IMG/VR virus record: IMGVR_UViG_3300028666_000026 | Coordinates: 1 to 64,000 of that record | From: a virus | Strand: one strand, 5' to 3' | Length of the DNA: 64,000 nucleotides | Part shown: piece after piece, positions 982 to 40,342 of the stretch | Layout: each line of letters opens with the position of its first letter | Numbering within the stretch: the stretch's first letter is position 1 | Program-made: the position numbers and the translations under genes | Notes under the pieces: model-generated | What the model was told of the DNA's origin: nothing | The model's database searches: none | What the model saw: only the letters and a program-made list of their open reading frames with translations

Positions 982-1003
982 ATTATAAACTAGCTAGTTT
1001 AAG
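982..1003 (-). promoter_or_regulatory. conserved early-region motif copy 1 (ATTATAAACTAGCTAGTTTAAG; TATAAT on minus strand)
   Basis: One of 5 near-identical copies; inverted-repeat core TAAAC-N6-GTTTA; intergenic. Confidence 0.5.
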
Positions 1004-2515
1004 TCACCTTTTACGCTGTAATCCTTTCAGCATCTTGATGCCATACTTGCGTTCGGCGTACTCTTTCATCGCATCCAGAAAGCCCTGCTGCTCGTCGCCC
1101 TTGCGCTTGAGGTTGCGCATCTTAGGCTCATCTACTGTGTTGCTAGTAACAAAGTGGTGCTTCATGACAAAGTCTGCTTTGTTGCCCTGCCGCCACACTC
1201 TGCGAAAGCATTGATCGTAATGATCGAAGTCGTCAGGTATGAAGAAGAAGCCCACATGCCGCGCATTGAACTTCTGCAAATTCAAAGCGTGACCGGCACT
1301 GGCCGGATGCACCATCATCAGCGGTAGTAAGCCTTTGTTCCACCGCTCAATGTAGTCGCTGGCTTGCGCGTTTGTGGTCTTGCCGTTGATGCAGGGAATG
1401 TCTTTGCCCAGCGCGTTGCGTATGGCCTCCACATCGTGATGGAATCCTATGGCCAACAACAATGGCTCGCCCTGTAACTCGCCATATAGATCGGCAACGG
1501 CTTCCACCTTGGCTGTGTGTAGAAATTTCACCGGGCGCACTTTGCTTGGCCAGCGATCATCATCGTCGCCAACGCGATCCATGTATACAGCGCCGTTAGC
1601 TATCTGTGCGCACTTGCTGCGAGCTGAGGCAGAGCTGGTCAATGGCTGCGTGAATAGCGTGCTCATCAGGCTTTCTTCTATCTGGTCATACTCCCTCTGA
1701 ATCTTCTCCGGCATTTCAACACGATGCAAACGCTCCGGCGTCTTGGGCAACTTCAAGTAGTCCTTGGCGTCCAGACGCAGCACCAGTGGCGCGACCAACT
1801 CATTGATCTGCTTGTCGGCTCCTGGCAATATCTGCCACTCGCGCATTTGGTAGCCAGTGGGGAAGAAGAACTGGTTGCGGTAGTGGCTCACGTATGTGCC
1901 CAACGCCGCGCCACGATCCAGAATAAATATCTGGCCAAACAAATCCAGGTAATTACGCGGTCGTGGACTACCAGTCAAGATATGTCTGCGCTTGAAGTAG
2001 CCTCTGTTTATCAGAGGTCGCAGTGCTCGAAAGCGCACTGTGGTGCTGTCTTTCCACCGCGAACTTTCATCGATGATAAGTTCGTCAGCGTCCAACAGCT
2101 TCAGACGTTCCTTCTTTTCTGTCAGCCAGCTGAAGCCCTCGGGGTTGATCAACGTTACAGGTTGATCTGTTAGCATGCGTAGTGCGCGGTCTTTACCCGG
2201 CCCATGTAGTATGGCTATGTCCAGCACATTAAAGTCGCGCCAGTCACTAATCTCGGCTGGCCACACGTCGTACACTGCGCGCAGCGGAGCCACTACCAAT
2301 ACGCGATGCGTCAGTCTTTTTTGAAGCAATACTTTTACTGACGCAAGGCTTATGCTGGTCTTTCCCAGCCCAGGATCGAGTAGCAGTCCGCTTTGTGGAA
2401 ACTCCAGCATGAACTTTAATGCGCGTTCCTGGTAAGGGTGCGGCTTCCATGGCTCGGCGTTCGACTTCCAGCCACTCATCTTTTGTGCTAACGACAGAGG
2501 TACTATATCCGTCAT
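1004..2515 (-). CDS. SNF2-family (SF2) DNA helicase
   Basis: PYQ Q-motif, Walker A LLLDPGLGKT, DESS (DExH-like) box. Confidence 0.8.
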   Translation of the reverse strand: MTDIVPLSLAQKMSGWKSNAEPWKPHPYQERALKFMLEFPQSGLLLDPGLGKTSISLASVKVLLQKRLTHRVLVVAPLRAVYDVWPAEISDWRDFNVLDIAILHGPGKDRALRMLTDQPVTLINPEGFSWLTEKKERLKLLDADELIIDESSRWKDSTTVRFRALRPLINRGYFKRRHILTGSPRPRNYLDLFGQIFILDRGAALGTYVSHYRNQFFFPTGYQMREWQILPGADKQINELVAPLVLRLDAKDYLKLPKTPERLHRVEMPEKIQREYDQIEESLMSTLFTQPLTSSASARSKCAQIANGAVYMDRVGDDDDRWPSKVRPVKFLHTAKVEAVADLYGELQGEPLLLAIGFHHDVEAIRNALGKDIPCINGKTTNAQASDYIERWNKGLLPLMMVHPASAGHALNLQKFNARHVGFFFIPDDFDHYDQCFRRVWRQGNKADFVMKHHFVTSNTVDEPKMRNLKRKGDEQQGFLDAMKEYAERKYGIKMLKGLQRKR

Positions 2516-2744
2516 CTTGCAGCTTCTCCCTGTGCCACTTCTGTAGCTTGGCTCTGCCTTTGGCCGTCTTGCCGTTTGGATCCTTGAACTCCACGATCAA
2601 CGGCACGCCACCCGGCACCCAGAATACGTGATCCGGGAATCCTGTAGGGTCCGTAACCTTGCTGACCGTCCAGCCCTTGGAGCGCCCTCTCGCTACAGCC
2701 CAGCGCTCCAGAGCGCTTTCTCTGGCTCTGTAGCGTGGGCTCAT
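2247..2744 (-). CDS. VRR-NUC domain nuclease (PD-(D/E)xK)
   Basis: N-terminal ~100 aa with VEFKDPNGK...K signature; C-terminal ~65 aa low-complexity and overlaps the helicase start (possible frameshift/overlap). Confidence 0.55.
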   Translation of the reverse strand: MSPRYRARESALERWAVARGRSKGWTVSKVTDPTGFPDHVFWVPGGVPLIVEFKDPNGKTAKGRAKLQKWHREKLQDDGYSTSVVSTKDEWLEVERRAMEAAPLPGTRIKVHAGVSTKRTATRSWAGKDQHKPCVSKSIASKKTDASRIGSGSAARSVRRVASRD

Positions 2745-2953
2745 ATAATGCGGTATTCCTGTATGTCTTCTAGAGCTCTTAACATGCGCTTTTCGTCGCC
2801 ACTTTGCACGGCAGCGTCAGCCGCGTTAATTGACTGCTGTACCATGCGCGTTGCTAATGCACTCAAGTCCCCTGTTAATGGTTGGCAATATGGCAGGTAC
2901 ACAGTTCGCAGCCAATCGCACTTATTGCGAATTGCTTCACGCAATACAATCAT
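2741..2953 (-). CDS. hypothetical protein
   Basis: 70-aa ORF, ATGA overlap with downstream gene. Confidence 0.35.
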   Translation of the reverse strand: MIVLREAIRNKCDWLRTVYLPYCQPLTGDLSALATRMVQQSINAADAAVQSGDEKRMLRALEDIQEYRII

Positions 2954-3156
2954 GTTTTTGCCCTCATTTCTTGCCCTCTACTGTTGCCCACACATTCGTG
3001 GTGCACTTCTGCGCCAGTTATGCCTAAACGCAACATCAATACTGTAGCAGCTTGCGGTGGTAGCAGCAATGCTCGCGCTGCGTCCAACACACCTGTTATG
3101 TAACAGCAGCGCTCCGGCGTGATGGCGGAAGCCTTTATAACTGGCTCGCTAGGCAT
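2950..3156 (-). CDS. hypothetical protein
   Basis: 68-aa ORF in tightly coupled minus-strand series. Confidence 0.35.
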   Translation of the reverse strand: MPSEPVIKASAITPERCCYITGVLDAARALLLPPQAATVLMLRLGITGAEVHHECVGNSRGQEMRAKT

Positions 3157-3778
3157 GTTCTGGCTCCGTCGAACATCCAGTGGCGTCAGACAAGGAGACT
3201 TTCTGATCTAAGAGTCGCGTATTATCCCAAATCCTTTGTAGCCAACGTGTCTGGTGCAGCGCGTCCTGCAGCGCGTTGTGTCTTACGCCCTTGAACGTCG
3301 GTTCTGGTACTGGAAACTGCGTCTTCATGGTTCGGAAGCATCTATTCATGTAGAAAGGCCAGGGCGCGTCCACATCGGCCTTCTTCATAGCGCATTGCAA
3401 TAATACATTGTCAAAGTCCGAACCGTTGCCCCACACTTCCAGGTTCGCTTCCAGATTCGCGCCTTGCGCTCTGAACCACGTACTGAACTGCATCAGCGCG
3501 TTGATAATGTGCACCGCGCGTACCGTTTGCTCGTCGCTGGCCGCGTTGAACACCATCCTAGCCTCCGGCGCTTGCCGGTTCCACCAATCTAGCGTGGCCT
3601 GGTCATCAGTCAACCCTATGAAGCGGCAAGACCGCCTGGAAATTGGCCCGGAGTAGTAGCACGGCCAATCGAGCTCCGCAACGCCAGGCGCGAACGCAAC
3701 AGCACCGATACTTATGATGCCACTGCCCGGCGCAGTACCGACAGTTTCTAGGTCAATCATTACGTCTGTGTAGTTCAC
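3149..3778 (-). CDS. DEDDh 3'-5' exonuclease (DnaQ-like)
   Basis: Exo I MIDLETVG; Exo III H-x-A-x-x-D (RHNALQDALHQ). Confidence 0.75.
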   Translation of the reverse strand: MNYTDVMIDLETVGTAPGSGIISIGAVAFAPGVAELDWPCYYSGPISRRSCRFIGLTDDQATLDWWNRQAPEARMVFNAASDEQTVRAVHIINALMQFSTWFRAQGANLEANLEVWGNGSDFDNVLLQCAMKKADVDAPWPFYMNRCFRTMKTQFPVPEPTFKGVRHNALQDALHQTRWLQRIWDNTRLLDQKVSLSDATGCSTEPEHA

Positions 3779-4062
3779 TGTTGCGCTCCCATTCTGATGT
3801 AATTGATGGCTAACTTCTTGGCTTCTTCCAGTACAGCCAGGTCAGCAGCTGGTAACTTGTGATTAGTGGCCGGCAGACCAGTTAGTTGTTGGTACGACGC
3901 TTCTTCTTCCATCCACGTCGCAACGCGGGTTAAGATGTTGCACGTCGCCGCGTGCAGGTCAGGCTTAGGCGGAGTTACAGTCTTCTTCTTAGTGGCCACG
4001 GTGTTCCTCCTTACATCTTTTCTGGGCAGGGGCCGCCCTTGCTCTTGGCGAATCGGCACCAA
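3775..4062 (-). CDS. hypothetical protein
   Basis: 95-aa ORF. Confidence 0.35.
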   Translation of the reverse strand: MVPIRQEQGRPLPRKDVRRNTVATKKKTVTPPKPDLHAATCNILTRVATWMEEEASYQQLTGLPATNHKLPAADLAVLEEAKKLAINYIRMGAQQ

Positions 4063-4772
4063 CTGCAGTGACGACCAGTCTTGGTCTTAAACTCTGTGTC
4101 TGACATCATCATCTTGGTACGTGCCACCCACTCGCGCTTTAGAGATTTTAAATCTTTCATGACAAACTCCTCTGTAGCACGTTGGCCGGTGTCAGTGTAG
4201 ATATGCTGGGCAGTTAGTTTTACGTCTGGGTTGCCGCCTGCCAACTTACCTATCTGAACTAACTGCAAACCTGCCAGTGCGTACAAAGATCGTTGTTGCT
4301 TATGCTCGTCATGTATACGCCCAGTTTTCCAATCAACTATTTCTACGGTGGGCGGATCTTTAGTTTCGGCACACGCATCTGTTTTGACACGCAGCCAAGC
4401 TCTATCCCAATCTTTCCAATCTACCTGTAGCCATTCGCGATCAAAGGCCCACAATTGTTCTGTAAGTGCCTTCTTCTTGCGCATGTTAATCAGTACGTCT
4501 TTGACATTGGTCAAGCTGACCTTGATGGGCTCGTCGCCCTTCTTAACTGGCGGCAATTCTTCTTCCAACACTGGTCTGGAACGACCTGTGCCGCTTACAA
4601 ACGTGTCAGCAATATCGTGGGTGCGGTTGCCTTTGATAAAGGCCGGGTTGGGCGGCTCGGTAATGCGCACACGTTGAATTTTGTCCAGGCACACAGAAAA
4701 TGGACATGCTATGTACTGCGTGTACACGCTGTATGACCACGACGTAAGTGTTGCGAAACGACCCTTGGGCAA
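4011..4772 (-). CDS. Cas4/RecB-like PD-(D/E)xK exonuclease with Fe-S Cys cluster
   Basis: VEIVDWKTG (D-x-K), QQRSLY (QhxxY), C-terminal CSWC...GGPC plus N-terminal Cys. Confidence 0.65.
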   Translation of the reverse strand: MPKGRFATLTSWSYSVYTQYIACPFSVCLDKIQRVRITEPPNPAFIKGNRTHDIADTFVSGTGRSRPVLEEELPPVKKGDEPIKVSLTNVKDVLINMRKKKALTEQLWAFDREWLQVDWKDWDRAWLRVKTDACAETKDPPTVEIVDWKTGRIHDEHKQQRSLYALAGLQLVQIGKLAGGNPDVKLTAQHIYTDTGQRATEEFVMKDLKSLKREWVARTKMMMSDTEFKTKTGRHCSWCRFAKSKGGPCPEKM

Positions 4773-4838
4773 TGTAGCTCCTTGAGACCCACTCGGTGAG
4801 AACTACGCTGATACAGAACGACGTGTAGCATATTAGAT

Positions 4839-5276
4839 TTAAGCAGTCACTTCGGCCTCCGTCACTTCGTAGCGCACTACGTGTTCGTTCAAATGGCCCA
4901 GCGCCATGGGGATTATCCAACGCAAGTTAGGCGCTAAAGTTTCTGGCAACCAAGGTACGTGCCAAGGACCTATTACTTCGTCCTCCGCAGTTCGCGCCGT
5001 CGCAACCATCACTGTGCTGAAGGCGTGAAAGAAATGAACCACCCAGCCGTTGCCGTGTAGAACAAGAAACTCACTCCATTCTTCCTGCGCAGTACTGACG
5101 CCAGTTTCCTCCTTGAACTCACGCACCATTGCAGCAAGCGGCAGCTCTGTATCTTCTACGTGGCCGCCGACGCCGTTCCATTTGCCAATGAGACATTCCG
5201 GTCCGCGGTTCTTCTTGATCAGCACTACGCGGTCTTTGTCTTCGCTGAACGCCAGCCCTACTACATACTCAGTCAT
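4839..5276 (-). CDS. NUDIX hydrolase
   Basis: Nudix box GGHVEDTELPLAAMVREFKEETGV. Confidence 0.75.
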   Translation of the reverse strand: MTEYVVGLAFSEDKDRVVLIKKNRGPECLIGKWNGVGGHVEDTELPLAAMVREFKEETGVSTAQEEWSEFLVLHGNGWVVHFFHAFSTVMVATARTAEDEVIGPWHVPWLPETLAPNLRWIIPMALGHLNEHVVRYEVTEAEVTA

Positions 5277-5866
5277 GGCTTAACTCCCTGCACAGTTTTG
5301 TCGTTGTTATAGCGCCCACGCTTGGCGTAGCCAGCCCATTCCGGCACGGCAGTGTGACGGAAGAACACTACCTGTCCCACGAAGTCGCCAACTTTGATGC
5401 GTATTGCATGATACCGAGTCAGGTTGGCTAACTCCAGGGTCAGCACCGAGCCGTGCCAATACGCGTCACACCAGCCAGCATTCATGTGCTCCAGAGCTAT
5501 ACGCCCCATGCTGGACTTCAGCTTGTACTCAGCGCTGAGGTTGGCTGGCAAGTTGAACACCTGCTCGCTCTGAGCCAGTATGAACTCACCTGGCTGAAGT
5601 ACGTACTCATCGCTGGGCGCTATCAACTTTACTTCGCGCATCTGCAATGGCTCGCGCCCACGTAGTGACACTGTGCGAATTAGCCTGTCTTGCTTCTCCA
5701 CGAGAATGGTTGGGCCCAGTGTGATGTCAATGGAAGACCCGTTGATATGGTCAGGCAGCGAGTTCTTTATAACGCCGCGCTTCTGTAACTCGAGAAGTTC
5801 TGTGTAGCTCAATAGGCTCATCCAACCAACTCCTGTGTGATCTTGTCTAGGTGTCGCAAACGCCAT
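5273..5866 (-). CDS. dcd: dCTP deaminase / dUTPase-fold protein
   Basis: Colinear similarity to dCTP deaminase: LQPGEF..LPANL..SSMGRIAL...AGWCDAYWHG..LELAN. Confidence 0.7.
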   Translation of the reverse strand: MAFATPRQDHTGVGWMSLLSYTELLELQKRGVIKNSLPDHINGSSIDITLGPTILVEKQDRLIRTVSLRGREPLQMREVKLIAPSDEYVLQPGEFILAQSEQVFNLPANLSAEYKLKSSMGRIALEHMNAGWCDAYWHGSVLTLELANLTRYHAIRIKVGDFVGQVVFFRHTAVPEWAGYAKRGRYNNDKTVQGVKP

Positions 5867-5973
5867 GGATGACCCCAGCCAGATCTACGCATCCTTACCT
5901 GATCCCAACCACCACGATCTACATGTTTCTTACCAGTTCTGCTTAAGCTCATCACCAACCACAGCTTTGTACT

Positions 5974-7908
5974 TCATGGTGCTGCCTCCTTCCACTTACT
6001 CAATTCTCCCCAGGACGGCCCAGATTCACCATCACTTAGCATTGGCACGTCTACCTCAATACTGAGCATACATTCACGTAAAATTTCTTGCTCTGGTTTC
6101 ATTTGCTTTGGCTTACAAGAAAACGAAATTTCATCATATACTGTGGTAAGAAATCGTCCGCGCCGCTTAGGGTGCGCGTCGTAGCGTATCAAGGTCTCCT
6201 TGGTCACGTCTCCGCCGCTACCCTGTAGCAAATAATTGAGTAGCTTGTAGGCGAAGTCCATGTCACGCCCGTAGAACTCGCTGTACTCCGGCGGCTCGCA
6301 GTAATATAGCCTTCCACCCCAAGTTCTGATCGGACCACCGTTAGGCCCGTAGTCCAGATCTTTCGCCAGTGCCTTCAACTTATCGTCTAACTCCTTGATG
6401 CTAGGCACAGCGGCATTGATGGCCTTCTGTATAATCTGGGCGACAGGCCGGTCTTCTTCCGGTAAGTGCAACGCGTCCATCAAGCCTGTAAGACCCTGGC
6501 CATACACACGCCCGAACACGCAGGTCTTAGCCGTGTCACGGTCGAAGCTATCGCGCAGCGCTGCTTCTATAAGACGGCGCTCAGACTCGGCGCGCACACT
6601 TTCGTGAATGTCAAACTTAGGGTCGCTCAGGAAACCCTGCATGACAGGGCCTTCCTCGAAGTGACCAAATAGACGCAGCTCCTGCTGATTGAAGTCGCGC
6701 TTGCCCCACTCGTCTCCCTTGTCTGGTAGGCAATATTGCCGCATGTATGGTAGGTCTGGCACGTCCAGCCAAGTTGGATGCAAGTACCCGGCAGAAGCTG
6801 ACCGCTTCCATTTCTTAGGAATGTTAAGGAAGTTAGGCCGCGAGCATATGATGCGTCCGCTGCGTGCTCCGGCGCTGTCCTTGCCCCCATTCTTGCTAGT
6901 ACGTACCTGCGACCAGTTAGGGAATATAACTCCGTTACCTGCCGTGCCCAGTTCCAGCCAAGGTTTGGCAAACATTGACACGCAGGTGGACATCTGACTG
7001 CGATATTGCAGCGCGTGGTACACACGCTTATCTTTGAACCTGTCTACTATGAGATGCTTCTTGCTGACGCTCAGCTGACCCTTGGCCGTCAATTTGAAAT
7101 CGCTGACAATGCCTTTGCTGTAGAGGGCCTGTCCAAGTTGTTTATCACTGTTGATGTTATCTATGCCCAGCCGTTTGCGCAGCCACTTGTCGGCCTTCTC
7201 TACGCCGTACTCCATTCTGGGCAGGTCAGACTCCAGCTTATTCATGTCCAGCCGCATACCCTCGCGCGCATTGCGCAGTAGTATGGGCATCAGCTTGCGC
7301 TCACGCTCGTATGCCGGCAGCATGCCAGCGGCCACTATTCTTGGATAGAGAAAATTGAATATCTTCAGCGTACGTGTCAAATCGCCCTTGTGATAAGGGC
7401 TGACTATGTTATACGGACACTCGCTAATGTAAGCGCCCCACTCGCTGGGCCTGCGCTTGGCTTCCGGCACATTGGCCAGAATCCACTCTTTCATGCGGTC
7501 TTGTTCTTCTGGCTTGATATTCAGCAACCGCTCAGCACTAGGCTTCAAAGCTAGCGAATCAGCGTGCGGGTTATCCAGGAACACCAAGTACATTGTGTCG
7601 TCTGTACGCTGCCACTCCGGCAGTGGTAGATCCCAGTGAGTCTCTGCCACGTCGTGATCGAACGTGCCGTAGTGAGTTAGCAGTCTGTACTTGCTGCGAT
7701 AGGCACGCAGAAGTTGGCCGCGCGCTTCACGCTCAGTGCAGTTATTCTTGCCTTCGGTGCGTCCACCGCAATGACCCCAGGCCATCAATTTGTAAGTCGC
7801 ATCGTCGGGCCATTTGATGGCCACCGACACAGGCTTCGGTGGGTAGTTGGGCCGTGGGTTAATTTTGAATGTTTCGAAGTCAATCACAATTACTGGGGGA
7901 GCGCTCAC
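5974..7908 (-). CDS. DNA polymerase, family A (with N-terminal exo-like DxE motif)
   Basis: Motif A DFNQQELR, motif B RIICSRPNFLNIP/ AKTCVFGRVYG, motif C VYDEI; N-term VIDFET. Confidence 0.9.
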   Translation of the reverse strand: MSAPPVIVIDFETFKINPRPNYPPKPVSVAIKWPDDATYKLMAWGHCGGRTEGKNNCTEREARGQLLRAYRSKYRLLTHYGTFDHDVAETHWDLPLPEWQRTDDTMYLVFLDNPHADSLALKPSAERLLNIKPEEQDRMKEWILANVPEAKRRPSEWGAYISECPYNIVSPYHKGDLTRTLKIFNFLYPRIVAAGMLPAYERERKLMPILLRNAREGMRLDMNKLESDLPRMEYGVEKADKWLRKRLGIDNINSDKQLGQALYSKGIVSDFKLTAKGQLSVSKKHLIVDRFKDKRVYHALQYRSQMSTCVSMFAKPWLELGTAGNGVIFPNWSQVRTSKNGGKDSAGARSGRIICSRPNFLNIPKKWKRSASAGYLHPTWLDVPDLPYMRQYCLPDKGDEWGKRDFNQQELRLFGHFEEGPVMQGFLSDPKFDIHESVRAESERRLIEAALRDSFDRDTAKTCVFGRVYGQGLTGLMDALHLPEEDRPVAQIIQKAINAAVPSIKELDDKLKALAKDLDYGPNGGPIRTWGGRLYYCEPPEYSEFYGRDMDFAYKLLNYLLQGSGGDVTKETLIRYDAHPKRRGRFLTTVYDEISFSCKPKQMKPEQEILRECMLSIEVDVPMLSDGESGPSWGELSKWKEAAP

Positions 7909-7930
7909 TGAAGTCTTACTCCTGTCAGGG

Positions 7931-8149
7931 TCATGCTGCCTTTTGTCGTAGCTTCAACTGCGCTCTGAGTTCTCTCAACTCACTGGCGCGCCGCACAGTA
8001 CTCATACGTCCGTACACCCGCATAGCACGCGTGACGCTACCTGTAAGCAAGATGGCATCCAACCAATGCCGAAGAATCACGGCATCATCGCACTTGAGCA
8101 GAGACTCATTAAGCTCTGCCCAACTTAGTTGAGTGACGTCTGGTTTCAC
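7931..8149 (-). CDS. hypothetical protein
   Basis: 72-aa ORF. Confidence 0.3.
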   Translation of the reverse strand: MKPDVTQLSWAELNESLLKCDDAVILRHWLDAILLTGSVTRAMRVYGRMSTVRRASELRELRAQLKLRQKAA

Positions 8150-8282
8150 TGCGCCCTCCTCTTACGTCGCTCCTCGTCTTCTTTCACAGCCGTCTTCACC
8201 AACGGCACACAGAGCTTTAGTAGCTCCGTGGCCGTGGTAAAGAAAGCGGCAATGGCTTTGTCTCTAGCATCGCCGGCATCGC

Positions 8283-9170
8283 TCATTTCTTCTTACCGCC
8301 CACGAACTTGCCAGACTTGCCGGCGTTTGACTTAGCAGGCGCTGCATCCTTCGTAGCAGTGGCCGAGTACGGCGTTTGCAGCACGCTTTGAATCTTGAGG
8401 AATCGCTTCTCCAACTCCACCAAGGTGTCATTGTCGGTGATGGAGTCCACGTATTTGAACTCCAGTCGAATTTGCGTCTTCTTGTCATCGTGGGAAGTGA
8501 TTTCAGTAATCACGGCCCACGGTGGCCGTCTGTAATCGCCGTCGGCGTCGCCCAACATCTTCACATATTCTGCGAAGTACCTGGTGTTGGTAGGCGACAC
8601 GTGCGCCAAACGCAGCTCTGCGGCTTTGGTGGTGTCGCTGTCTTCTAAGTCAGCAGCCACCAACAATCCCAGACGTATCGTATTAGAGCAAGCCTTGCCC
8701 TTGCCCACTGTAGCAGTGCCCATGATATTCTTGGGACATGGCGCGCTGTCATCTGTGCCATTGCACTGCGGCGATTGTTTGTTGACAACAGTGAAGTACG
8801 GCTTGACGGAAGGATCGGTGCCCGCGACTGTGGTACCAGGTTCGTCAGGGTTCGGCGCTGCAAACGCGTAGCAGTCTGGCGGCACCTTGTTCTTGGCGTC
8901 GTACACGCCATCGTACCACCGATTGTGCGGCGTACTGCCCAAGATAACGCACTCTATCGGCCCTTTGATCTCCACGCCATCCACAGTAATGGAGTTGTGA
9001 CCGAAGCTGATGCTGGACCCGTACACGCCCACATCCTTCACCTGTTCAGTTGACTGCTTCGCATAGGCTGCGAACTTCTCGTCCCAAGGCACCAAGGCCG
9101 TGGAGCCACCTTTCGTCGTTTTCTTTGCTGCCGTCTTCTTTGCTGCTGATGCTTTCTTGAAGTCTACCAT
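8283..9170 (-). CDS. hypothetical protein, Lys-rich termini (possible DNA-binding)
   Basis: 295-aa ORF; KK-rich N- and C-termini; no recognisable catalytic motif. Confidence 0.45.
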   Translation of the reverse strand: MVDFKKASAAKKTAAKKTTKGGSTALVPWDEKFAAYAKQSTEQVKDVGVYGSSISFGHNSITVDGVEIKGPIECVILGSTPHNRWYDGVYDAKNKVPPDCYAFAAPNPDEPGTTVAGTDPSVKPYFTVVNKQSPQCNGTDDSAPCPKNIMGTATVGKGKACSNTIRLGLLVAADLEDSDTTKAAELRLAHVSPTNTRYFAEYVKMLGDADGDYRRPPWAVITEITSHDDKKTQIRLEFKYVDSITDNDTLVELEKRFLKIQSVLQTPYSATATKDAAPAKSNAGKSGKFVGGKKK

Positions 9171-9351
9171 TTACTCTCCTTGCTGCAAGGGTTATGCTGC
9201 GTTGACTAACAAGCGTGTGCACTACGCTCAGTAGATAGAAGGCAAAATTTCTTCTGGATCAGTGTCGGGTGGATCATCACCATCGTCACTCTTGCTGCGC
9301 ACGTTCTCCCACTCACTATGCCAATGCCTGGCTTCGCTGTACAGGAACAGA

Positions 9352-10268: not shown

Positions 10269-10316
10269 CCTTGGCCTGTAGCATCGCGATACAGGATGAG
10301 GCGCGGCGCTACTTCG

Positions 10317-11276: not shown

Positions 11277-11351
11277 TGGTGGACCCGCAGGGATTCGAAC
11301 CCTGGACCGAAGGATTATGAGTCCTCTGCTCTACCGCTGAGCTACAGGTCC
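11277..11351 (-). tRNA. tRNA-Met (or Ile2) anticodon CAU, CCA encoded
   Basis: Cloverleaf read by hand: acceptor GGACCUG/CGGGUCC, D GCUC/GAGC, anticodon stem GAGGA/UCCUU loop CUCAUAA, T CAGGG-UUCGAAU-CCCUG, ACCA. Confidence 0.85.
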
Positions 11352-13111: not shown

Positions 13112-13112
13112 G

Positions 13113-15396: not shown

Positions 15397-15430
15397 TCCG
15401 CGCTCCTTAGATACACGGTGCCCTAGCTCT

Positions 15431-15452
15431 ATTATAAACTAGCCGGTTTAGG
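15431..15452 (-). promoter_or_regulatory. conserved early-region motif copy 2 (ATTATAAACTAGCCGGTTTAGG)
   Basis: Same motif as 982..1003; followed by GC palindrome GGCCGTGCGCGCGGCC. Confidence 0.5.
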
Positions 15453-15632
15453 CAGGCCGTGCGCGCGGCCTAGCTAGTGCGCGTGTAAGGTCCATGGAAG
15501 CGCGTCTAACTGCTCCGCTCTCGGGGCACCCAACGGTTTCCCAGCTACTGTATTCAAGCCGCAACAGTAAGTTACACTTCGCCACAAACCGCTGCGCCTC
15601 AGCCTTCGCTGCTTCTACTTCACTAGCTCTCA

Positions 15633-31991: not shown

Positions 31992-32369
31992 TCATGGCTT
32001 AGCCTTCCTGCTGGCTCCATCGATCACGCCTCGTATGAACTCTTTGGTGTCTTGCTGGTGCTGTTCAAGAGTCCGCAGCCGAGCTTCGTGAATGTCGTTC
32101 AACTTGGTAAGAATACGAATTGAATCCACCATCGCCTGCCATTCCCGCTCCGTGACCTCGTGCATGTCGTCAGCACAGTGCGGGTCATAGCAACTATTCG
32201 GCATGGAATCGGCGCACCACTGTGATGGGTAATCGACGCGCTGATACTTCCCACACTTGAGAACGCCACCCAGTGCGCGGACATTGGGCGCTGGTTTAAG
32301 AGGCGCAATCGTTGGATTCTGCCCCCACGCCGTCATCCCCATCATCAGAAGAATTGTGATCAACTTCAT
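31992..32369 (-). CDS. putative lipoprotein/secreted protein
   Basis: Signal peptide MKLITILLMMGMTAWG; Cys-rich; C-terminal KAKP; paralog of next gene. Confidence 0.45.
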   Translation of the reverse strand: MKLITILLMMGMTAWGQNPTIAPLKPAPNVRALGGVLKCGKYQRVDYPSQWCADSMPNSCYDPHCADDMHEVTEREWQAMVDSIRILTKLNDIHEARLRTLEQHQQDTKEFIRGVIDGASRKAKP

Positions 32370-32713
32370 GGCTTGGCCTTCTTTGATTTACAGAATTTGT
32401 TATCCTTGATGCGGTACTGTTTTGGGTTGTCGATATACGAAGGCGCGCTATCAACCATAGCGTTGACTTGCGCCTCTAGGTCACACACTGTCCTACATAC
32501 TGGCCCGCTTCTTACCGGAGTGTATGCGAGACTCATCATCTCCACTTCACATTGATAGACGCGCGCGGTGAAACTGTTGGTGATCACGGTGTAGTGATTG
32601 AGCCACATAGCCTGCTCGAACGAGTGATCTTCCCGCGCAGGCCGCATTGGCGCGTATTTATCTGGCCCACACCCACATAAACCTATCATCAGAACTGCGA
32701 TCAGTAGCTTCAT
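32366..32713 (-). CDS. putative lipoprotein
   Basis: MKLLIAVLMIGLCGC lipobox-like; shares AMVDS and KAKP with neighbour. Confidence 0.45.
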   Translation of the reverse strand: MKLLIAVLMIGLCGCGPDKYAPMRPAREDHSFEQAMWLNHYTVITNSFTARVYQCEVEMMSLAYTPVRSGPVCRTVCDLEAQVNAMVDSAPSYIDNPKQYRIKDNKFCKSKKAKP

Positions 32714-33157
32714 GGCTTCGGCTCCAGCAGGGCGAGAATTTTGTCTGCGATTTCAGGCGCACGGTCTGGATACTGCTTCAGCACGTCAATCACCTTCTCC
32801 CGCAGCGTCGGCTCGGGCGCGATCAGGGCGCGGCGATTGCGGATGAGTATCCCACCTGATCGCGAGTGAGAGCAAGCCACGCTCCATCGCCTCTCAGTGT
32901 GAATGGATTCGCTCCGTCGAATTCCTCATCCGTCACCGGCCCCAGCACCCTCTTCAGATCCTCCTCGTGCATCTTCTGGAACACACTGAATGCTCCGCGC
33001 ATCCAGCGCCTGTTGTACTCATCTGGTTTAAAGCAGGATGTCCCACACGCTGCGTAGCCCGCCCTGACTGCGGCATCAATCACCTCATCGCTAATCTTCA
33101 TCGTGCTTCTCCTTCTTCCGATCCTCAGCCCTGCGCTCCGCCCCGCGCGTCTCAACT

Positions 33158-33727
33158 CTACGTTGTCCAGATACTGTCGATCACGCTAAAGCGCGGAACT
33201 AGTCTGTTCACTGCCGCGCTGACGCCCGGGAAACCTTCCGGATCGTAGTCGTGCCCGGCAAGCACGCCGTTGGTCGACAGTAGTGGCCGCCACGCTTCGA
33301 TGTCAGCGGTCACCGAAGCCTCGTCGTGCGCTGCGTCGATGAATATGAAGTCGAACTTAGTGCTAGTCCTGACAAAATCCGCTGCCGCAGCTAAACTGGG
33401 CATTGGTATTGGGTGCACATTGGGGTAGCGCGCTGTGTTCCACAGGAATGCTTTGAATACCCAGTCAGGCTCGTCCGGGTGTGCGGCGTACTCGGCGCTC
33501 AATTCGTCGTACGGCTTCCAAGGGTCCACGGCATACACTGTGCCGCTGGTGTTGGCCGCTAGCGTGACAGTACTCCGCCCTTGCCAGCAGCCTATCTCCA
33601 CAATGAGTCTGGACCGCCGAGCCACGCTGGCCAGATACAGCAGCTCCGCATTGCTCATCCAGCCCGGCACACCCATGGATGGGCTGATGTCTACTCCGGC
33701 GCGCAGCAGCTCCAGATAGTCGGTCAC
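33158..33727 (-). CDS. class I SAM-dependent methyltransferase (O-MT family 3-like)
   Basis: Motif I VEIGCWQGRST, post-I VYAVD, motif IV FDFIFIDAAH. Confidence 0.75.
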   Translation of the reverse strand: MTDYLELLRAGVDISPSMGVPGWMSNAELLYLASVARRSRLIVEIGCWQGRSTVTLAANTSGTVYAVDPWKPYDELSAEYAAHPDEPDWVFKAFLWNTARYPNVHPIPMPSLAAAADFVRTSTKFDFIFIDAAHDEASVTADIEAWRPLLSTNGVLAGHDYDPEGFPGVSAAVNRLVPRFSVIDSIWTT

Positions 33728-33963
33728 GCGCGCAGTCCTTTCTTCGCAGCTTCGCGATCATGGTCCCAACGTGCTGTCATGTCGGCAGCCCAACGTGCTA
33801 CCACGTCGGCGGGCAACTCGCCTGGCTGCACTGTCACATCAATGTCGTTGAACTTGAAGTGGACCGGCTTGGCCCGACTACTTGCCAGCGCCACTGCTTT
33901 CTCGCACACACTATTAATATGCTCACCCGCAAAAAACTCATCTAGCTCCAGATAGTCGGTCAT
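33724..33963 (-). CDS. hypothetical protein sharing N-terminus MTDYLEL with downstream methyltransferase
   Basis: 79 aa; 46-bp direct repeat spans both start regions. Confidence 0.4.
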   Translation of the reverse strand: MTDYLELDEFFAGEHINSVCEKAVALASSRAKPVHFKFNDIDVTVQPGELPADVVARWAADMTARWDHDREAAKKGLRA

Positions 33964-34170
33964 GTACGTAGTCCTTTCTTCGCAGATCTTGACTCTAATT
34001 CAGTTTTGACATCTCGCATCAAAGTCAAAATTCGTTTTCGTGGACTACTTTCTTGTTGAGCAGCTCTAGTAAGGACCAATTTTTGTCCTCCGAGTGCTGC
34101 TGGGTAATGTTCAACGCTTTGACTAAAGTCTCCTGGATTGCGATTCCGGATTTTAGATCATTGAGTTCTT

Positions 34171-34749
34171 TTATTGACATGTCGTCCCCAATCCGCAGAA
34201 TTGCCATGCTCCGTTCGGCAGGCATTGCCGCCATGTGCCATACGCGTCTGTCACTATGCGTGGGTACTCGCCGGGCGGTGTCAGGAAGTGGAACCAGTCC
34301 GCCGGGTAGTAGATGGGCGACGATGACTGCTGGTAGTTCCAATCAGTTATGATTGGCTTGACAGCCACAATGGCCTTGTAGTCCTCGCTGAACTCGAACC
34401 CGGCCTCCCAGCCAATCTTGTACACACCGTCGCACACGGGTAGGCTATGCAGTCCCGCATGGTAACTGAACACTCTGGGCGATGGATAGACGCCGCATAT
34501 GCCTGAAATCAGATAGCGCCGGGTAATACGTTCGCGCAACTCGCCACGCCGCACCTCCAGCGCAGCTTCCTGCAGTTGTATAGACCGAGCCTCGGTGGCG
34601 TCATCCGTGTCTAGCACGATCACCTTGGCTAGCGACGAATCTCCCGGCTGCTGAGTTACCTGGGCCGCAGCAATGCGAACCGCGTTGGCGGCAGTTAGTA
34701 GCAGGGTCAGGACGGCGACGCGTGCTGTGGTACGCAAGTGGCCGCTCAT
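34171..34749 (-). CDS. secreted protein (signal peptide)
   Basis: MSGHLRTTARVAVLTLLLTAANAVRIAAAQ signal-like N-terminus. Confidence 0.45.
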   Translation of the reverse strand: MSGHLRTTARVAVLTLLLTAANAVRIAAAQVTQQPGDSSLAKVIVLDTDDATEARSIQLQEAALEVRRGELRERITRRYLISGICGVYPSPRVFSYHAGLHSLPVCDGVYKIGWEAGFEFSEDYKAIVAVKPIITDWNYQQSSSPIYYPADWFHFLTPPGEYPRIVTDAYGTWRQCLPNGAWQFCGLGTTCQ

Positions 34750-35315
34750 GCTTCCGCGTCCTTGCCCTGTATGCCTTGTATACTGGCCGCGCCCTCGGGT
34801 GCACGCTCATCGTCCAGGTCTGGGACGTCATCTGGAGTGTCGGCTTGGCGTGCTTCGTCCAGCACCTCGCGCGCTTCCTTGAGAACCGCCTTGGCGTGAT
34901 CCAGCATGCTGTGAGCCTCAGCCTTCACTTTGGCCTGCGTAGCACGTATTGCCACAAGCAGCACCAGCGCGAACAGGGTGGCAGCATAGCAACAGCTAAA
35001 TGGCGTACTCAGCGATTCCACATAGCTGTGGTGCTCGCGCACATAGGTCAGACTATTTGTGGCCGCGTCAGCACCCGCCGTGTATGCCATACAAGCATCG
35101 CCAGTCTTAAACGGGCAGCCTGGAATGTCAGATGTGGGCCAGAAGTACAACGGACCAGCATCGTCCGACGCGGGTGGTGCGGAGGTGGAACCGTCTGATG
35201 TGTACATGGCGTAGGACGGCGTGGTGGAACACAGTATGTCGGTGCCGGGTGACTTGAGCACTGCGCCGTTAGTTATGACACACGTGGGTAATGTGGTAGT
35301 CATTTCTTGCTGCAT
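34746..35315 (-). CDS. membrane-anchored protein
   Basis: Central TM LFALVLLVAI, acidic C-terminal tail; first gene after motif copy 4. Confidence 0.45.
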   Translation of the reverse strand: MQQEMTTTLPTCVITNGAVLKSPGTDILCSTTPSYAMYTSDGSTSAPPASDDAGPLYFWPTSDIPGCPFKTGDACMAYTAGADAATNSLTYVREHHSYVESLSTPFSCCYAATLFALVLLVAIRATQAKVKAEAHSMLDHAKAVLKEAREVLDEARQADTPDDVPDLDDERAPEGAASIQGIQGKDAEA

Positions 35316-35428
35316 GTGTTCTCCTTGTCATAGATTCCTAATACACGTGCGATCAATACTGCGATTGCTAAACACAAAGTTACTGAGACTCGTGGCTTCA
35401 TAAGTAGTGACCTGGAACGCGTAGCTTA

Positions 35429-35450
35429 ATTATAAACCGGGCGGTTTAAG
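35429..35450 (-). promoter_or_regulatory. conserved early-region motif copy 4 (ATTATAAACCGGGCGGTTTAAG)
   Basis: Same flanks TTATAAAC / GGTTTAAG with different centre. Confidence 0.5.
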
Positions 35451-35855
35451 GTGGTCGGCGTGCGGGCACTAAGGGATGTTGATGCGCTGTAGTATGGCCG
35501 TTATCACGGTTAGATGTGCCGGGCCTAGCCGATAGGTGACGCCGTCCGACATGCGTATCAACACATCACTCTTTTCGGCCTCTACTGCCACGACTTGGTC
35601 TGGGTTGATATACACCGTTCTGCCGTCCACATTGTTGAACTGTACTAGAAGCATCTGAGTTCTCCTTACTGAATGATTTCTGTCATTGGTGTCGCGTCTA
35701 ACAATGTAACCGGCTCGTACCCAGGGCAGGGACAGTCCTCCGCCATGTTGGGCGAAGGATAGCTCGCCCTGACCATTCGCCGGCAACAGCCAAACTCCTC
35801 GTCATGATCCTCGCCGACATGGCCGCAGTGCTTGCATGGTGGGTGAGTTTCTTGG

Positions 35856-36125
35856 CTAGCTGTCATGGGCGCGCCTCTTCTTAGTCAAATTACGCACAAC
35901 CAGCTCCCGCGTAGTTATCTCCACCGCACCGCGCGCCACGGCCAGTTTGCGCTTGGACAAACAAATGTCGAAGTGCTCGCGATACGTACCAGCGTGCTGC
36001 AACCACCGGCGCTGCACACCAATAGCGTTGGCAGCGCTCAGTAATTCGTCGCTGGTATCGGCAATCATGTGGCACATAATCATGCCACGGTAAGCGGCGC
36101 GCATGTCGTCGACGAAGACGGTCAC
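35856..36125 (-). CDS. conserved hypothetical protein
   Basis: 89-aa ORF. Confidence 0.35.
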   Translation of the reverse strand: MTVFVDDMRAAYRGMIMCHMIADTSDELLSAANAIGVQRRWLQHAGTYREHFDICLSKRKLAVARGAVEITTRELVVRNLTKKRRAHDS

Positions 36126-36333
36126 TGACTACTCTCCCACTCCAAATTGCCGCCCCAGGTCCAGTGCAGCTTATGTGGCGTGGTGCGCCAGTGATCACAA
36201 CGATACTTACCTTCGTAGCGCGCCTCGCACCTGTGGGCGTCGTCAGGCATGACGTAACCCTCGTCCATGTTCACCAGCCAAGGTCTGCGCTCGGGTGGAA
36301 TTTCCACGTGCTGAGGTTCCATGTGCTGAGCTG

Positions 36334-38490
36334 TCACTGCACCTTCTCCTTCTTCGCCGCTGCTTGCTGCGATGGCGGCACGAACTGCGTGGGCCGCTCC
36401 TGCACGTAGCGCCGCGCGGCCTCGGTGCTAGTTATAGGGGCGCGCTCCAGGTTGTCGTTGCGTATTATCCAGAACGTGGATCGCGTATTGCCCAGCCGAC
36501 CGTTATTGTGCAGGGCCTTGCGGAAACCGGCGCGGTCCAGCGCAATGCCCACGGTGCGCAAACTAGCTCGCTTCCGCTCCTCGGGATCGTACAGCTTGAG
36601 TAGGTCATCGCTGGTGTAGATACTGAATGGGCCGGTAGCAGACGCGCTGGAGGGTCCAGCATACTTGGAGGCACTGGAGGGTGCTAGGTACTTATCCGGA
36701 TTGAGCTTCAGCGCCACGGCCCACGTGTCTACCTCTGAGCGGGAATTGGCTATGAGGTCCAGCTTGGCCTCGGTGTCGGGCGGCTCGGCAGTGGGGCTGA
36801 AGTCCCCCATGTCCAGTTCGTTAATCAGGTAGTAGGCCACGTGTGCAGCGCCCCCGTTACGCATCCACGCCATGAATTTCCGCCCATACTCGTCGCCAAC
36901 GGGTATCTCAGGAGCATGTATAACGAAGGTGCGCCGCTCACCCTGATCCAGCACAATGGCGACGGGGTCATTGCTGGTGAAGTAGTAATTAGCACAATCT
37001 GGAACCTCATACGATTCAATCCCCTTCCTATTGATACGCACTGTGCGACTAGTCAGCATGGACTTCAAATCGCCACTGGTGTGGCGCTTATCGTCCAGTG
37101 TTATCTCGTCACCGATGATAAACTGCTTGCCCTCGGCCCATCCGTTGAAGTCTGAGGTCAAGTGGCGCGACTTGATAGTAGCGCAGTTGAGTTCACCATA
37201 TATAGGTATCATGGCCTCGGCCATAAGGTTCTTGCCCGTGCCGCCCTTGTGGGACCAGACCAGCACACAGCTGAACATCTTGGTGCCAGGATGCACCAGT
37301 GGATAGGCCAACCACCGGCGGAACCACAGCTGCCGATCCACTGTCATGTCCGCTAGCATTCGTTTAAGCAAGTCCTCCCAAGGCTTAATGTCACCCTTGA
37401 CAGGCTTGACACCGCAATCCTGCCACATATTGAAGTCGCCTGTATGTGTTATACGCGGCTTGCCCGGTGCGTATGTAAGGTTGTTAACACGCGCTCGGCA
37501 ACGCCAGCTCAGCCACTCTTCCGCTGCAAATTTGAGCTTGGGCAGGCCTGGGTCGCCCTTGGAGTTGAGCGTGTACTCCATGTAAGCTCTGTCCTTGTAG
37601 AAGGCACGCGTGAATTGCTGTGGTGTCATGATCTTGGCGTCTTCCACGCGCACCACATTACCGCCAGCACCACCTGACCACAACAGGGCCACTTCCTCGT
37701 TTAATCTGTGCAGCTCTAAGCTGGCCTGCACAGGCTTGGCTGCCTTGACCAATGTATCCAGCGCTTCGGGCGAGTTAGCCAGCATAAAGTCGTCCACGCC
37801 CTGCTTGCCGCCATCTGAGCCCGGTGGAAGCTCTATCTCGTGCACAATCGCGCCGCGCGCTGTTAAGGCCAGAGCCAGACGGCTCAGGGCCAGCTGCACT
37901 AACGGCTTGGTGGCCGCGTCGCTGTCGAAGCATAGGTACACCACGCGCCCCTTCCAGACGAATTGCTCTAATATGGGTAGGAACTCCTGATGGCGGCGCT
38001 TACTCATCCAGCTGAACACACCGCCCAGGCCCATCATGATACGACCGTTGGCGCACACACAGGCTGCCTTCAGCTCGCCTTCGGTGATGTATACGTCGAC
38101 ACGTGGCTCCTTCATCACGTCAGCCCAGGTTACACCCTTGAGCAAGGGTGGCATGTAAACATGCAGCTCCGAGCCTGCCGGTTGTACGTATCTCAGCTTG
38201 CTGGGCTCTGCCAGCGAAGCGAATCCACTACCAGGTTTGGACACAGGCCAGAACCTGTATCGATAAAAGTCCTTGACCACTTTACCCTGCGGCGTGAAGT
38301 ACGGAATCTTGAACCCGGCCCAAGCTGGCATCACTCCCAGTTCTGCGGCCATCTGTTCCGTCATAGGTTCTATATGTAACGCCTTGGCGTGAGTGGTGGA
38401 CAGCAAACTGCTACGCAACTTTGCGCTTACTGCTTGCTTTACGGCTGCCAGATTGAGCGGGGGCATCTTCTTCCAGGTTCTCCAGAGCAA
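36334..38490 (-). CDS. primase/helicase (Toprim-like N-domain + D5-type SF3 helicase)
   Basis: Walker A WSHKGGTGKN, acidic Toprim-like CFDSD...DD region. Confidence 0.85.
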   Translation of the reverse strand: MLWRTWKKMPPLNLAAVKQAVSAKLRSSLLSTTHAKALHIEPMTEQMAAELGVMPAWAGFKIPYFTPQGKVVKDFYRYRFWPVSKPGSGFASLAEPSKLRYVQPAGSELHVYMPPLLKGVTWADVMKEPRVDVYITEGELKAACVCANGRIMMGLGGVFSWMSKRRHQEFLPILEQFVWKGRVVYLCFDSDAATKPLVQLALSRLALALTARGAIVHEIELPPGSDGGKQGVDDFMLANSPEALDTLVKAAKPVQASLELHRLNEEVALLWSGGAGGNVVRVEDAKIMTPQQFTRAFYKDRAYMEYTLNSKGDPGLPKLKFAAEEWLSWRCRARVNNLTYAPGKPRITHTGDFNMWQDCGVKPVKGDIKPWEDLLKRMLADMTVDRQLWFRRWLAYPLVHPGTKMFSCVLVWSHKGGTGKNLMAEAMIPIYGELNCATIKSRHLTSDFNGWAEGKQFIIGDEITLDDKRHTSGDLKSMLTSRTVRINRKGIESYEVPDCANYYFTSNDPVAIVLDQGERRTFVIHAPEIPVGDEYGRKFMAWMRNGGAAHVAYYLINELDMGDFSPTAEPPDTEAKLDLIANSRSEVDTWAVALKLNPDKYLAPSSASKYAGPSSASATGPFSIYTSDDLLKLYDPEERKRASLRTVGIALDRAGFRKALHNNGRLGNTRSTFWIIRNDNLERAPITSTEAARRYVQERPTQFVPPSQQAAAKKEKVQ

Positions 38491-38872
38491 TGCGTAGCAA
38501 AGCGTCCACGACTTGACTTGTACTTACATTACGTACGGCGTCATTCACTTCGTTCTTCCTACGATTATTGGTGCGCAGTGTCACCGTGAAGAACTTCCTG
38601 GTTACAGCGCGCGTGGCCACATTCAACATGCCATGCTCAATCAGAGCGTCGCCGTCCAGAGTGCTATTTAGTAAGTGTCTCAGTTCTGCGTAGTTTTCCT
38701 TCGTTAGTCCTCGCTTGTCGACCACTATGGGAGGGTCGACATGTTTCGGCTGAAGACCTAGTTTGATGCGTAGGTCCTTGTCTGCGGTCAAAGTCAGCAC
38801 CAATCTCTGCAAGGTGAACAGGATTTCGTCTGACAAATAGTAAGCCTGCACCCGCTTGTTCACGGTTCGCAT
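38411..38872 (-). CDS. hypothetical protein, first gene of leftward block
   Basis: 153 aa, directly downstream (minus sense) of the AT-rich switch region. Confidence 0.45.
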   Translation of the reverse strand: MRTVNKRVQAYYLSDEILFTLQRLVLTLTADKDLRIKLGLQPKHVDPPIVVDKRGLTKENYAELRHLLNSTLDGDALIEHGMLNVATRAVTRKFFTVTLRTNNRRKNEVNDAVRNVSTSQVVDALLRIALENLEEDAPAQSGSRKASSKRKVA

Positions 38873-38879
38873 TGCTAAC

Positions 38880-39310
38880 TCCTTTTAGGTTGTGATCAAA
38901 GCTATTAAGGGAGCCTTAATTATAGCCCGTCAGGCCGCGCGGCTAGTTTTGCAGGCTAATTACACGGTAAGTTAATAACCTACTACGCAGATTATTAACT
39001 GCAAAAGGGGTGAAAAAACGGGTTTTGCAAGGCCGTTTAAAAACACTGTTTAGTAGTTATTGTACTTAAACCCTTAAGAATGAACACCCCTTTTCAACTA
39101 TTTAAAACGGTGAGAATTGCCATATGTAAATCTCACTTGTGTATAGCGACTATACACAAGTTATTAATTAATAGCCTAGTGCTCTCGCGTATGGCGATCT
39201 GTATATATCATTAGTTAGTTAGTTTAATAGTTAGTAGTAGTGAATACTGTGGTTTAGAGAAAAAATTGTAACTAACATACACTAACGAAAAAGTGAAGTT
39301 GTTGAAAAAT
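38880..39310. other. AT-rich divergent switch region (candidate origin / divergent promoters)
   Basis: Sharp GC drop; perfect 11-bp palindrome CTTGTGTATAG-cga-CTATACACAAG (39136-39160); TAGT(T) microrepeats 39213-39243. Confidence 0.5.
38915..38950 (-). promoter_or_regulatory. variant motif copy 5 (TAATTATAG-GC palindrome-CTAGTTTTG)
   Basis: Shares TATAAT (minus) and AAAACTAGCC half with other copies; GCCGCGCGGC palindrome inserted. Confidence 0.35.
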
Positions 39311-39976: not shown

Positions 39977-39997
39977 GATTGAACCGCTACACTGGGA

Positions 39998-40325: not shown

Positions 40326-40342
40326 AAAGAGTTCTGTGAGGA

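Follow-up and report, generated by a model that had tools for sequence, protein, structure and literature searches.

A conserved palindrome overlaps the -10 hexamer of four predicted early promoters in an uncultivated phage genome

The 64,000-nt stretch analysed here (the window; positions 1 to 64,000 of IMG/VR record IMGVR_UViG_3300028666_000026) is part of an uncultivated phage genome of ~105 kb, represented by metagenome assemblies of ~105.4 kb. The minus strand from position 1 to ~38,900 is a replication/early arm. It encodes a SNF2 helicase, a family-A DNA polymerase, a PD-(D/E)XK nuclease, a ligase-like protein and a DUF3854/DUF5906 primase-helicase, together with nucleotide-metabolism enzymes and numerous small open reading frames (ORFs). 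The plus strand from ~39,000 is a late/structural arm with transfer RNAs (tRNAs), a permuted transfer-messenger RNA (tmRNA), terminase, portal, MuF, an Alt-like ADP-ribosyltransferase and PB1/E217-type virion genes. A DNA-level search against 50,697 phage records gave no match, and the best protein matches are 37–39% identical. True intergenic gaps on the early arm are few. Five of them hold the sites that we call c1 to c5: four copies of a 22-bp element in which a 16-bp palindrome overlaps a TATAAT hexamer, and a fifth site that has the hexamer and no palindrome.

When the window was scanned with the plus-strand form of the element, ATTATAAAC-N5-GGTTTAAG, there were four matches against 0.05 expected, a count reached in none of 100 shuffles. 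All four elements read in the same direction, on the minus strand: c1 (982–1003) and c2 (15431–15452) with one mismatch each, and c3 (24581–24602) and c4 (35429–35450) with none. An earlier note on this DNA had these positions and the common orientation right. Its N6 spacer was wrong, however; the spacer of the plus-strand motif is N5, and the N6 form finds one site, even at three mismatches. On the minus strand the four near-identical elements take the form CTTAAAC-CGGCTAG-TTTATAAT. The sequence of c1 is CTTAAACTAGCTAGTTTATAAT (also written GACTTAAACTAGCTAGTTTATAATAGAAGC), with the -10 hexamer at 982–987, a perfect 16-bp palindrome, TAAACTAGCTAGTTTA, at 986–1001, and a predicted transcription start at the A at 975. 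For c2, CCTAAACCGGCTAGTTTATAAT (also written TGCCTAAACCGGCTAGTTTATAATAGAGCT), the hexamer is at 15431–15436, the palindrome arms lie inside 15435–15450, and the predicted start is the A at 15424. The exact consensus is found at c3, CTTAAACCGGCTAGTTTATAAT (also written CACTTAAACCGGCTAGTTTATAATTAAGTC; hexamer 24581–24586, predicted start A at 24574), and c4 reads CTTAAACCGCCCGGTTTATAAT (also written ACCTTAAACCGCCCGGTTTATAATTAAGCT; hexamer 35429–35434, predicted start A at 35422).

The repeated element is genuine and occurs far more often than chance would allow. Within the window, the palindrome TAAAC-N6-GTTTA is confined to c1–c4. A weight matrix built from seven sites scores c1–c4 at 37–42 bits and never exceeds 12 bits in the rest of the window. 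TATAAT itself has five minus-strand occurrences in 64 kb, one in each of c1–c5. Beyond the window, there is no palindrome copy on the coding strand of L160, which covers ~7.3 kb past the right end, and no additional copy in L062, which covers ~9.7 kb past the left end. One further intergenic TATAAT promoter, without the palindrome, is present at L062 13911. A relaxed scan of the window for additional generic promoters gave no convincing extra site in either arm.

Each site lies upstream of the ribosome-binding site and start codon of a run of minus-strand genes, at 25–45 nt for four sites and ~114 nt for c4. The first early run, behind c5, consists of a gene for a 153-amino-acid protein (38411–38872) followed by that for the primase-helicase (36334–38490). 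The run behind c4, which is itself ~0.9 kb downstream of the primase gene, extends from 35315 to 24582. Directly downstream of the DUF4326 gene (24582–24947) is c3, whose run extends from 24558 to 15633. The c2 run, from 15396 to 1004, encodes a 254-amino-acid protein, the ligase, DNA polymerase A, the PD-(D/E)XK nuclease and the SNF2 helicase. The final site, c1, starts right after the SNF2 helicase stop (ORF end at 1004), and its run extends leftwards from 951. The first gene after c3 (24361–24558, minus strand; true start probably the second ATG, at 24546) encodes a Flp/Fap-pilin-like protein, a match that is below the cut-off (E = 3.3e-5).

The fifth site, c5 (38912 to 38950, minus strand), reads AAAACTAGCCGCGCGGCCTGACGGGC-TATAAT-TAAGG, with its hexamer at 38919–38924 and a predicted start at 38912. 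It had been described as a degenerate copy of the element at 38915–38950. It does share CTATAAT-TAAG with c1–c4, but this is the only common ground; it is not a copy of the palindrome and is a palindrome-less promoter. A segment resembling the upstream half-site of c1, AAAACTAGCC, is shifted ~12 nt upstream, and GC-rich GCCGCGCGGC lies between. Three perfect GC-rich palindromes had also been said to abut copies of the element. Two are indeed perfect, namely GGCGCAGCTGCGCC (24559–24572, 14 bp, within the 5ʹ untranslated region of c3) and GCCGCGCGGC (38934–38943, at c5), but GGCCGTGCGCGCGGCC, at 15455 beside c2, is imperfect. Furthermore, their placement is inconsistent, with GGCGCAGCTGCGCC downstream of the element, GGCCGTGCGCGCGGCC upstream of it and GCCGCGCGGC inside it. 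Since the window contains 49 perfect palindromes of at least 10 bp, the association is weak, and we do not treat the GC-rich palindromes as part of the element.

Are c1–c5 promoters? All five carry a perfect TATAAT, correctly oriented upstream of genes, as expected for a sigma-70 -10 hexamer. There is no TTGACA-like -35 hexamer 16–18 bp upstream: a sigma-70 consensus scan misses c1–c5, and the aligned upstream sequences differ. Thus, the earlier description of a TATAAT -10 with no conserved -35 is accurate. The canonical extended -10 motifs, TGn at -15 to -13 or TGTG at -17 to -14, are absent, and the same region has a different sequence, GGKT, with -16 to -13 being AGTT or GGTT in the window. 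We suggest that these promoters act like members of the extended -10 class that lack the canonical TG motif. At the seventh base after the hexamer, c1–c4 all have an A, an indirect hint of a transcript start, which in sigma-70 promoters is expected 6–8 nt past the hexamer. In view of position, orientation, exclusivity to the early arm, this A, and conservation in relatives, the prediction that c1–c5 are promoters is a strong one.

Relatives of the primase at 52–66% identity are numerous. They are found on long metagenomic contigs, largely from Joint Genome Institute (JGI) environmental metagenomes, and from the accession series alone we take the samples to be peat or bog. Weaker primase relatives (31–38% identity) are on contigs assigned to Acidobacteriota and other phyla. 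We assembled a clade set of 34 non-redundant TATAAT sites on the early strand, none with the palindrome and each with a ribosome-binding site and start codon downstream. Among these, G is found at -16 in 24 of 34 and at -15 in 24 of 34, -14 is G or T, T is found at -13 in 15 of 34, and the A at the seventh base after the hexamer is found in 21 of 34. There is no -35 signal; composition there is flat. Hence, the predicted early promoter of this clade is GGKT-TATAAT-N6-A without a -35, with TATAAT as a generic -10. This pattern is drawn from relatives L058–L061 and L064–L143 and the window, and the GGG of c5 at -16 to -14 matches it. Because the 34 palindrome-less promoters share the TATAAT region and the A with c1–c4, the -10 of c1–c4 counts as generic; what sets these four apart is the added upstream arm, TAAAC(C), located around -26 to -21. 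The coding strand of the late arm lacks TATAAT, also in the 7.3 kb of late genes past the right end of the window, so the late promoters must be of another kind. AAGTCA(T/C) occurs a few bases downstream of the -10 at c3 (24574–24581) and at the c5-equivalent promoters of several relatives (L064 9484, L072 ~740, L078 ~475, L088 ~9535), and may be a conserved transcript start or leader.

The TATAAT promoters are presumably read by host RNA polymerase. Two mechanisms had been put forward in the earlier note: a host -10 with the overlapping operator of a dimeric regulator, which we favour, and a promoter for a phage-directed sigma factor or RNA polymerase, which is unsupported. A host-type -10 is favoured because TATAAT without a -35 is generic throughout the clade, with or without a palindrome, and because c5 must fire before any phage protein exists. 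Pfam and PHROGs searches covering the early arm, most late-arm proteins and the annotated flanks identified no gene for a phage sigma factor, RNA polymerase or recognisable transcription factor in the window and 17 kb of flanking sequence. The T4 late promoter box recognised by gp55, TATAAATA, is absent from the -10 position when the sites are read along the genes. In that sense the sequence is TTTATAAT, with TATAAA at c1–c4 on the antisense strand only. An Alt-like ADP-ribosyltransferase in the head module would be in keeping with use and modification of the host polymerase by the phage. This protein (ADPrib_exo_Tox) is encoded beside a MuF-like head protein (45914–47215 and 47996–48856, plus strand), which suggests an injected enzyme that could modify host RNA polymerase.

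The palindrome is also found in other phages. Four relatives with 60–65% primase identity contain six more copies of TAAAC-N6-GTTTATAAT, all oriented with the genes and a short way upstream of a ribosome-binding site and start codon, several of them at positions roughly syntenic with c4 and c3. L064 has one full copy and a degenerate copy, TAAACTCACTGGTCTATACT, directly after the primase gene; L065 has one copy; L067 has one, directly after the primase gene; and L279 has two, of which one directly follows the primase gene and the other lies downstream of DUF4326. An alignment of the four window sites and these six shows little or no variation at the TAAAC and TATAAT positions. The spacing is N6 in all five genomes, and the central six bases vary, even within one genome. 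Two motif scans of IMG/VR gave only single, chance-level matches, and a search of IMG/VR for the primase gave no match. TAAAC-N6-GTTTA without TATAAT, in the distant relatives L096, L108 and L135, was set aside as being at chance level by our estimate.

The palindrome is 16 bp long, has 5-N6-5 symmetry and spans about -26 to -11. Its centre is near -18.5, and it overlaps the -10 hexamer, which occupies -12 to -7. Its halves are TAAAC(C), at about -26 to -21, and (G)GTTTA, at -16 to -11, with half-site centres 11 bp apart, or one helical turn. Symmetric half-sites, fixed spacing and a variable centre, in four window sites and six sites of relatives, are the features of a dimeric operator, and the promoters at c5 and L062 13911 do without them. 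A two-fold protein site fits better than a folded structure because the outer half-sites are conserved and the 6-bp spacer is invariant, while the centre is free to change. On this pattern, a dimeric DNA-binding protein most likely uses the palindrome as its operator. Once bound, such a protein would be expected to contend with sigma for the -10, and we therefore lean towards repression or timing control rather than activation.

We therefore favour a model, to which we give a probability of about one half, in which c1–c5 are early promoters for the host polymerase, and c1–c4 are overlapped by the operator of a phage-encoded dimeric protein that turns them down or times them. Host RNA polymerase with its primary sigma factor would read all five promoters by means of TATAAT and the G/T-rich segment at -17 to -13, with no -35, and would probably initiate at the A seven bases past the hexamer. 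At c1–c4, a dimeric phage-encoded protein bound to the 16-bp palindrome would block access to the -10 region, thereby lowering or timing the expression of the four operons. The first operon, which is transcribed from c5 in this scheme and encodes the primase, would be exempt.

What would bind the palindrome? The 153-amino-acid product of the first early gene, whose position is conserved in relatives, was considered as a regulator on that position alone. Word-based homologue searches with it were almost empty, and hhalign gave a probability of 0.6% against a CopG sequence. A second candidate is the 98-amino-acid product of a late-arm ORF (45299–45595, plus strand), which has a full-length GerE profile match of 16.5 bits (E = 0.0064) against a cut-off of 23.5, and also matches Sigma70_r4 (E = 0.013) and the EvgA C-terminal domain (E = 0.85). 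The LuxR-type protein mentioned in the earlier note thus corresponds to a genuine ORF with a sub-threshold GerE match, but nothing ties it to the element. That it binds the palindrome is speculative, and a late-expressed GerE-type dimer that shuts off c1–c4 would be pure conjecture. A CTGGT-TACAAT promoter-like site (45258–45263, plus strand) is located 35 nt upstream of this ORF, and a long GC-rich hairpin followed by a T-run, resembling a terminator, closes a late-arm unit at 45025–45115 (plus strand). The GerE protein of L058 was rejected as a shared regulator, there being no homologue in the window. Presence/absence profiling of window proteins in motif-bearing and motif-less relatives, a sample too small to rely on, picked out three: DUF4326 and the products of two small, uncharacterised early ORFs. 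None of these is a plausible DNA-binding protein. A small ORF at 39484–39852 (plus strand), with a conserved part of ~90 amino acids, is the first late-arm gene in 9 of 9 compared relatives and is divergent from the c5 operon. No family matches its product, which is a possible regulator of late genes.

Several observations count against an operator for a phage repressor. There is no Pfam or PHROG regulator on the early arm that could be the cognate protein. The 153-amino-acid protein has no Pfam match, its family profile has no match in the PDB, and two AlphaFold models of it, with predicted local distance difference test (pLDDT) scores of 40 and 43, are unusable. The GerE-like protein falls below the Pfam threshold and has no homologue in the fetched parts of the motif-bearing relatives. 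The more distant relatives L058, L059, L061 and L134 carry different palindromes, such as TAAC..GTTA types, at a variable distance from TATAAT, and a single rigid operator model does not explain these. The proximal arm, (G)GTTTA, consists largely of the generic -17 to -13 segment and the TA that opens the hexamer, and the symmetry could in part be a by-product of this coincidence. The choice between repressor and activator comes solely from the position of the site, and promoter activity, start sites and polymerase use are all predictions from DNA sequence. Finally, ~24 kb of the ~105-kb genome is outside the searched sequence and may hold a phage sigma factor or polymerase.

A rather doubtful alternative, though the best of those we weighed, is that c1–c4 are bipartite promoters for a redirected polymerase. 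In that case a phage factor would recognise TAAAC, at about -24, as its specificity element and activate c1–c4 as delayed-early or middle promoters, with c5 acting unassisted as the immediate-early promoter. The factor might be, for example, a small helix-turn-helix protein resembling sigma region 4 or GerE, or an appropriator like MotA of T4. This would account for the division of the promoters of this genome into two classes, with c5 and L062 13911 in one and c1–c4 in the other. It is also consistent with the generic upstream segment being slightly weaker at c1–c3, which have A instead of G at -16, and with the presence of a GerE/Sigma70_r4-like protein in the window and another in L058. However, activators do not usually bind where this element lies, over the -10 with its centre near -18.5, and the element is symmetric, which a specificity element for a polymerase-tethered factor need not be. 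Moreover, c4 and most of the relatives' copies keep the full GG of the generic promoter, and the GerE-like gene is on the late arm behind the terminator-like hairpin, so its product would not be available early.

An improbable explanation is that the palindrome acts as nucleic-acid structure, either as a DNA hairpin or cruciform in the promoter, as in N4, or as an RNA hairpin in read-through transcripts. The promoter of the N4 virion RNA polymerase has a stable stem of 5–7 bp with a 3-nt loop and is used by a giant virion polymerase. The likeness is a short inverted repeat just upstream of an early-gene start. At the boundaries of operons, an RNA hairpin could serve as a signal for processing, stabilisation or attenuation, and no separate terminator lies between c1 and the stop codon before it. 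In distant relatives, inverted repeats with other arms and loops, such as the 11-bp arms in L148, also stop at the TA of TATAAT. Across the clade, 11 of 71 promoters have an inverted repeat with a 3ʹ arm ending at A-11, against 2.3 in shuffles. However, this enrichment is seen likewise at non-promoter TATAAT sequences (10 of 118). RNA folding of the elements gives -2 to -7 kcal/mol, which is no more stable than for shuffled sequences, and the minimum-energy folds of c2 and c3 lack the hairpin. Across the 10 sites, the seven possible pairs are 88.6% paired versus 87.5% in shuffles, and covariation is not above that in shuffles, with the five outer pairs invariant and the two inner pairs unpaired in 2 and 4 of the 10 sites. 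There is no U-tract. There is neither a stable hairpin nor a recognisable homologue of the N4 virion polymerase; a 1417-amino-acid protein of the virion module (55715–59968, plus strand) has no Pfam, PHROG or PDB sequence match. A symmetric DNA structure that aids promoter melting is also less likely than an operator.

It is more improbable still that the upstream arm is functionless, the four copies being recent duplicates of one promoter cassette with accidental symmetry. The window copies do fall into two subtypes by their common downstream bases, c1/c2 with TATAATAGA and c3/c4 with TATAATTAAG, suggesting a history of duplication. However, TAAAC and the N6 spacing have been kept in four genomes whose proteins are only 60–65% identical, while flanks and central bases have diverged. 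The least probable explanation is that the element is read as a promoter by a single-subunit RNA polymerase or a sigma factor that the phage itself encodes. A conserved ~22-bp element lacking a -35 and repeated before gene blocks would suit it, as would the ~24 kb of genome outside the inspected sequence. However, Pfam and PHROGs identified no such gene in the window or its 17 kb of flanks, and the six bases at the centre differ between copies in a single genome, unlike those of single-subunit polymerase promoters. The -10 is the canonical primary-sigma hexamer common to the palindrome-less promoters of the clade, and c5, necessarily the first to fire, has the same -10.

Promoters overlapped by an operator of a dimeric phage protein, our preferred reading, have well-known counterparts. 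Repeated operators overlap promoters in the OR and OL regions of lambda, 434 and P22, at Pant, where P22 Arc binds, and in the C1 operators of P1 and the stoperators of mycobacteriophage L5. As in those phages, several copies of a short site overlap the promoter core before early gene blocks, and the 5-N6-5 symmetry resembles that of sites for dimeric helix-turn-helix proteins. In contrast, the candidate operator described here has no known cognate repressor, its proximal half-site coincides with the promoter's own extended -10, and there is no sign of lysogeny functions in the parts of the genome seen here; the P1 and L5 sites, unlike this one, are asymmetric. T4 middle promoters combine an asymmetric MotA box, centred at -30, with a -10, and are used by sigma appropriation. 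There too a phage-specific element upstream of a good -10 replaces the -35 and defines a temporal class, but we found no MotA or AsiA homologues. The PeSL repeats of T4-type phages are likewise promoter cassettes repeated before early gene blocks; however, the PeSL stem-loop is beside a full -35/-10, whereas the repeat here overlaps the -10 and has no stable fold. T7-like single-subunit polymerase promoters are contiguous conserved sequences of ~20–23 bp in phages that carry the polymerase gene, and the variable centre of the element and the absence of such a gene from the window and flanks set c1–c4 apart from them.

Thermus phage P23-45 has middle and late promoters of the extended -10 type, lacking a -35, that are read by host RNA polymerase containing sigma A (PMC5758890). 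The promoters described here are similar in having a consensus -10, a short motif at about -17 to -14 and no -35; the host polymerase is used in P23-45 (PMC5758890) and is predicted to be used here. They differ in that the upstream motif is GGKT (AGTT or GGTT in the window) rather than TG(TG), in that no polymerase binders like gp39 or gp76 were identified, and in that they serve early/replication genes, with four carrying the additional palindrome.

Other features of the genome deserve mention. Between the divergent arms is an AT-rich non-coding stretch (38950–39320) with a hairpin that has a 12-bp stem (39135–39161), TAGTTAGTTAGTT-type repeats that are likewise found in L061, and a lone CTTAAACC half-site at 39065 on the plus strand; it is a possible origin or late-control region. 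The permuted tmRNA, of the two-piece type, is located at 40265–40585 (plus strand; Rfam RF04321, 77.8 bits against a gathering score of 47, and also called by ARAGORN). It adjoins tRNA-Gln (39904–39976) and tRNA-Thr (39997–40072), and a tRNA-Met gene (11277–11351) is on the early arm. An 870-amino-acid early-arm protein (19178–21790, minus strand) matches the Major Vault Protein shoulder domain (E = 8.5e-23), which is unusual for a phage, and the Vault_3 repeat (E = 5e-11). Past the left end of the window, L062 18019–20375 encodes ADDT/GATase_6 and, faintly, HMUDK_HMUD1 domains, suggesting thymidine hypermodification of the phage DNA. If this is true, the T-rich promoter elements may be chemically modified.

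What do these sites mean for the biology of this clade? A promoter overlapped by an operator, and repeated before early operons, is a design that belongs to standard phage biology, and this is a new instance of it in a poorly known clade. We tentatively propose, at well below even odds, that a peat/soil phage clade with PB1/E217-like virions runs its whole early programme from GGKT-TATAAT, and that in one lineage a symmetric switch, sharing a half-site with the promoter, parts an exempt immediate-early operon from four regulated ones by means of a regulator whose family is not recognisable from sequence. The analysis provides a testable promoter map of the early arm, with five operon starts and their predicted +1 positions. 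The clade consensus, GGKT-TATAAT-N6-A, hints at how promoters are recognised by the host polymerase or a phage-modified form of it, and the conserved 16-bp palindrome would serve as bait for finding the regulator.

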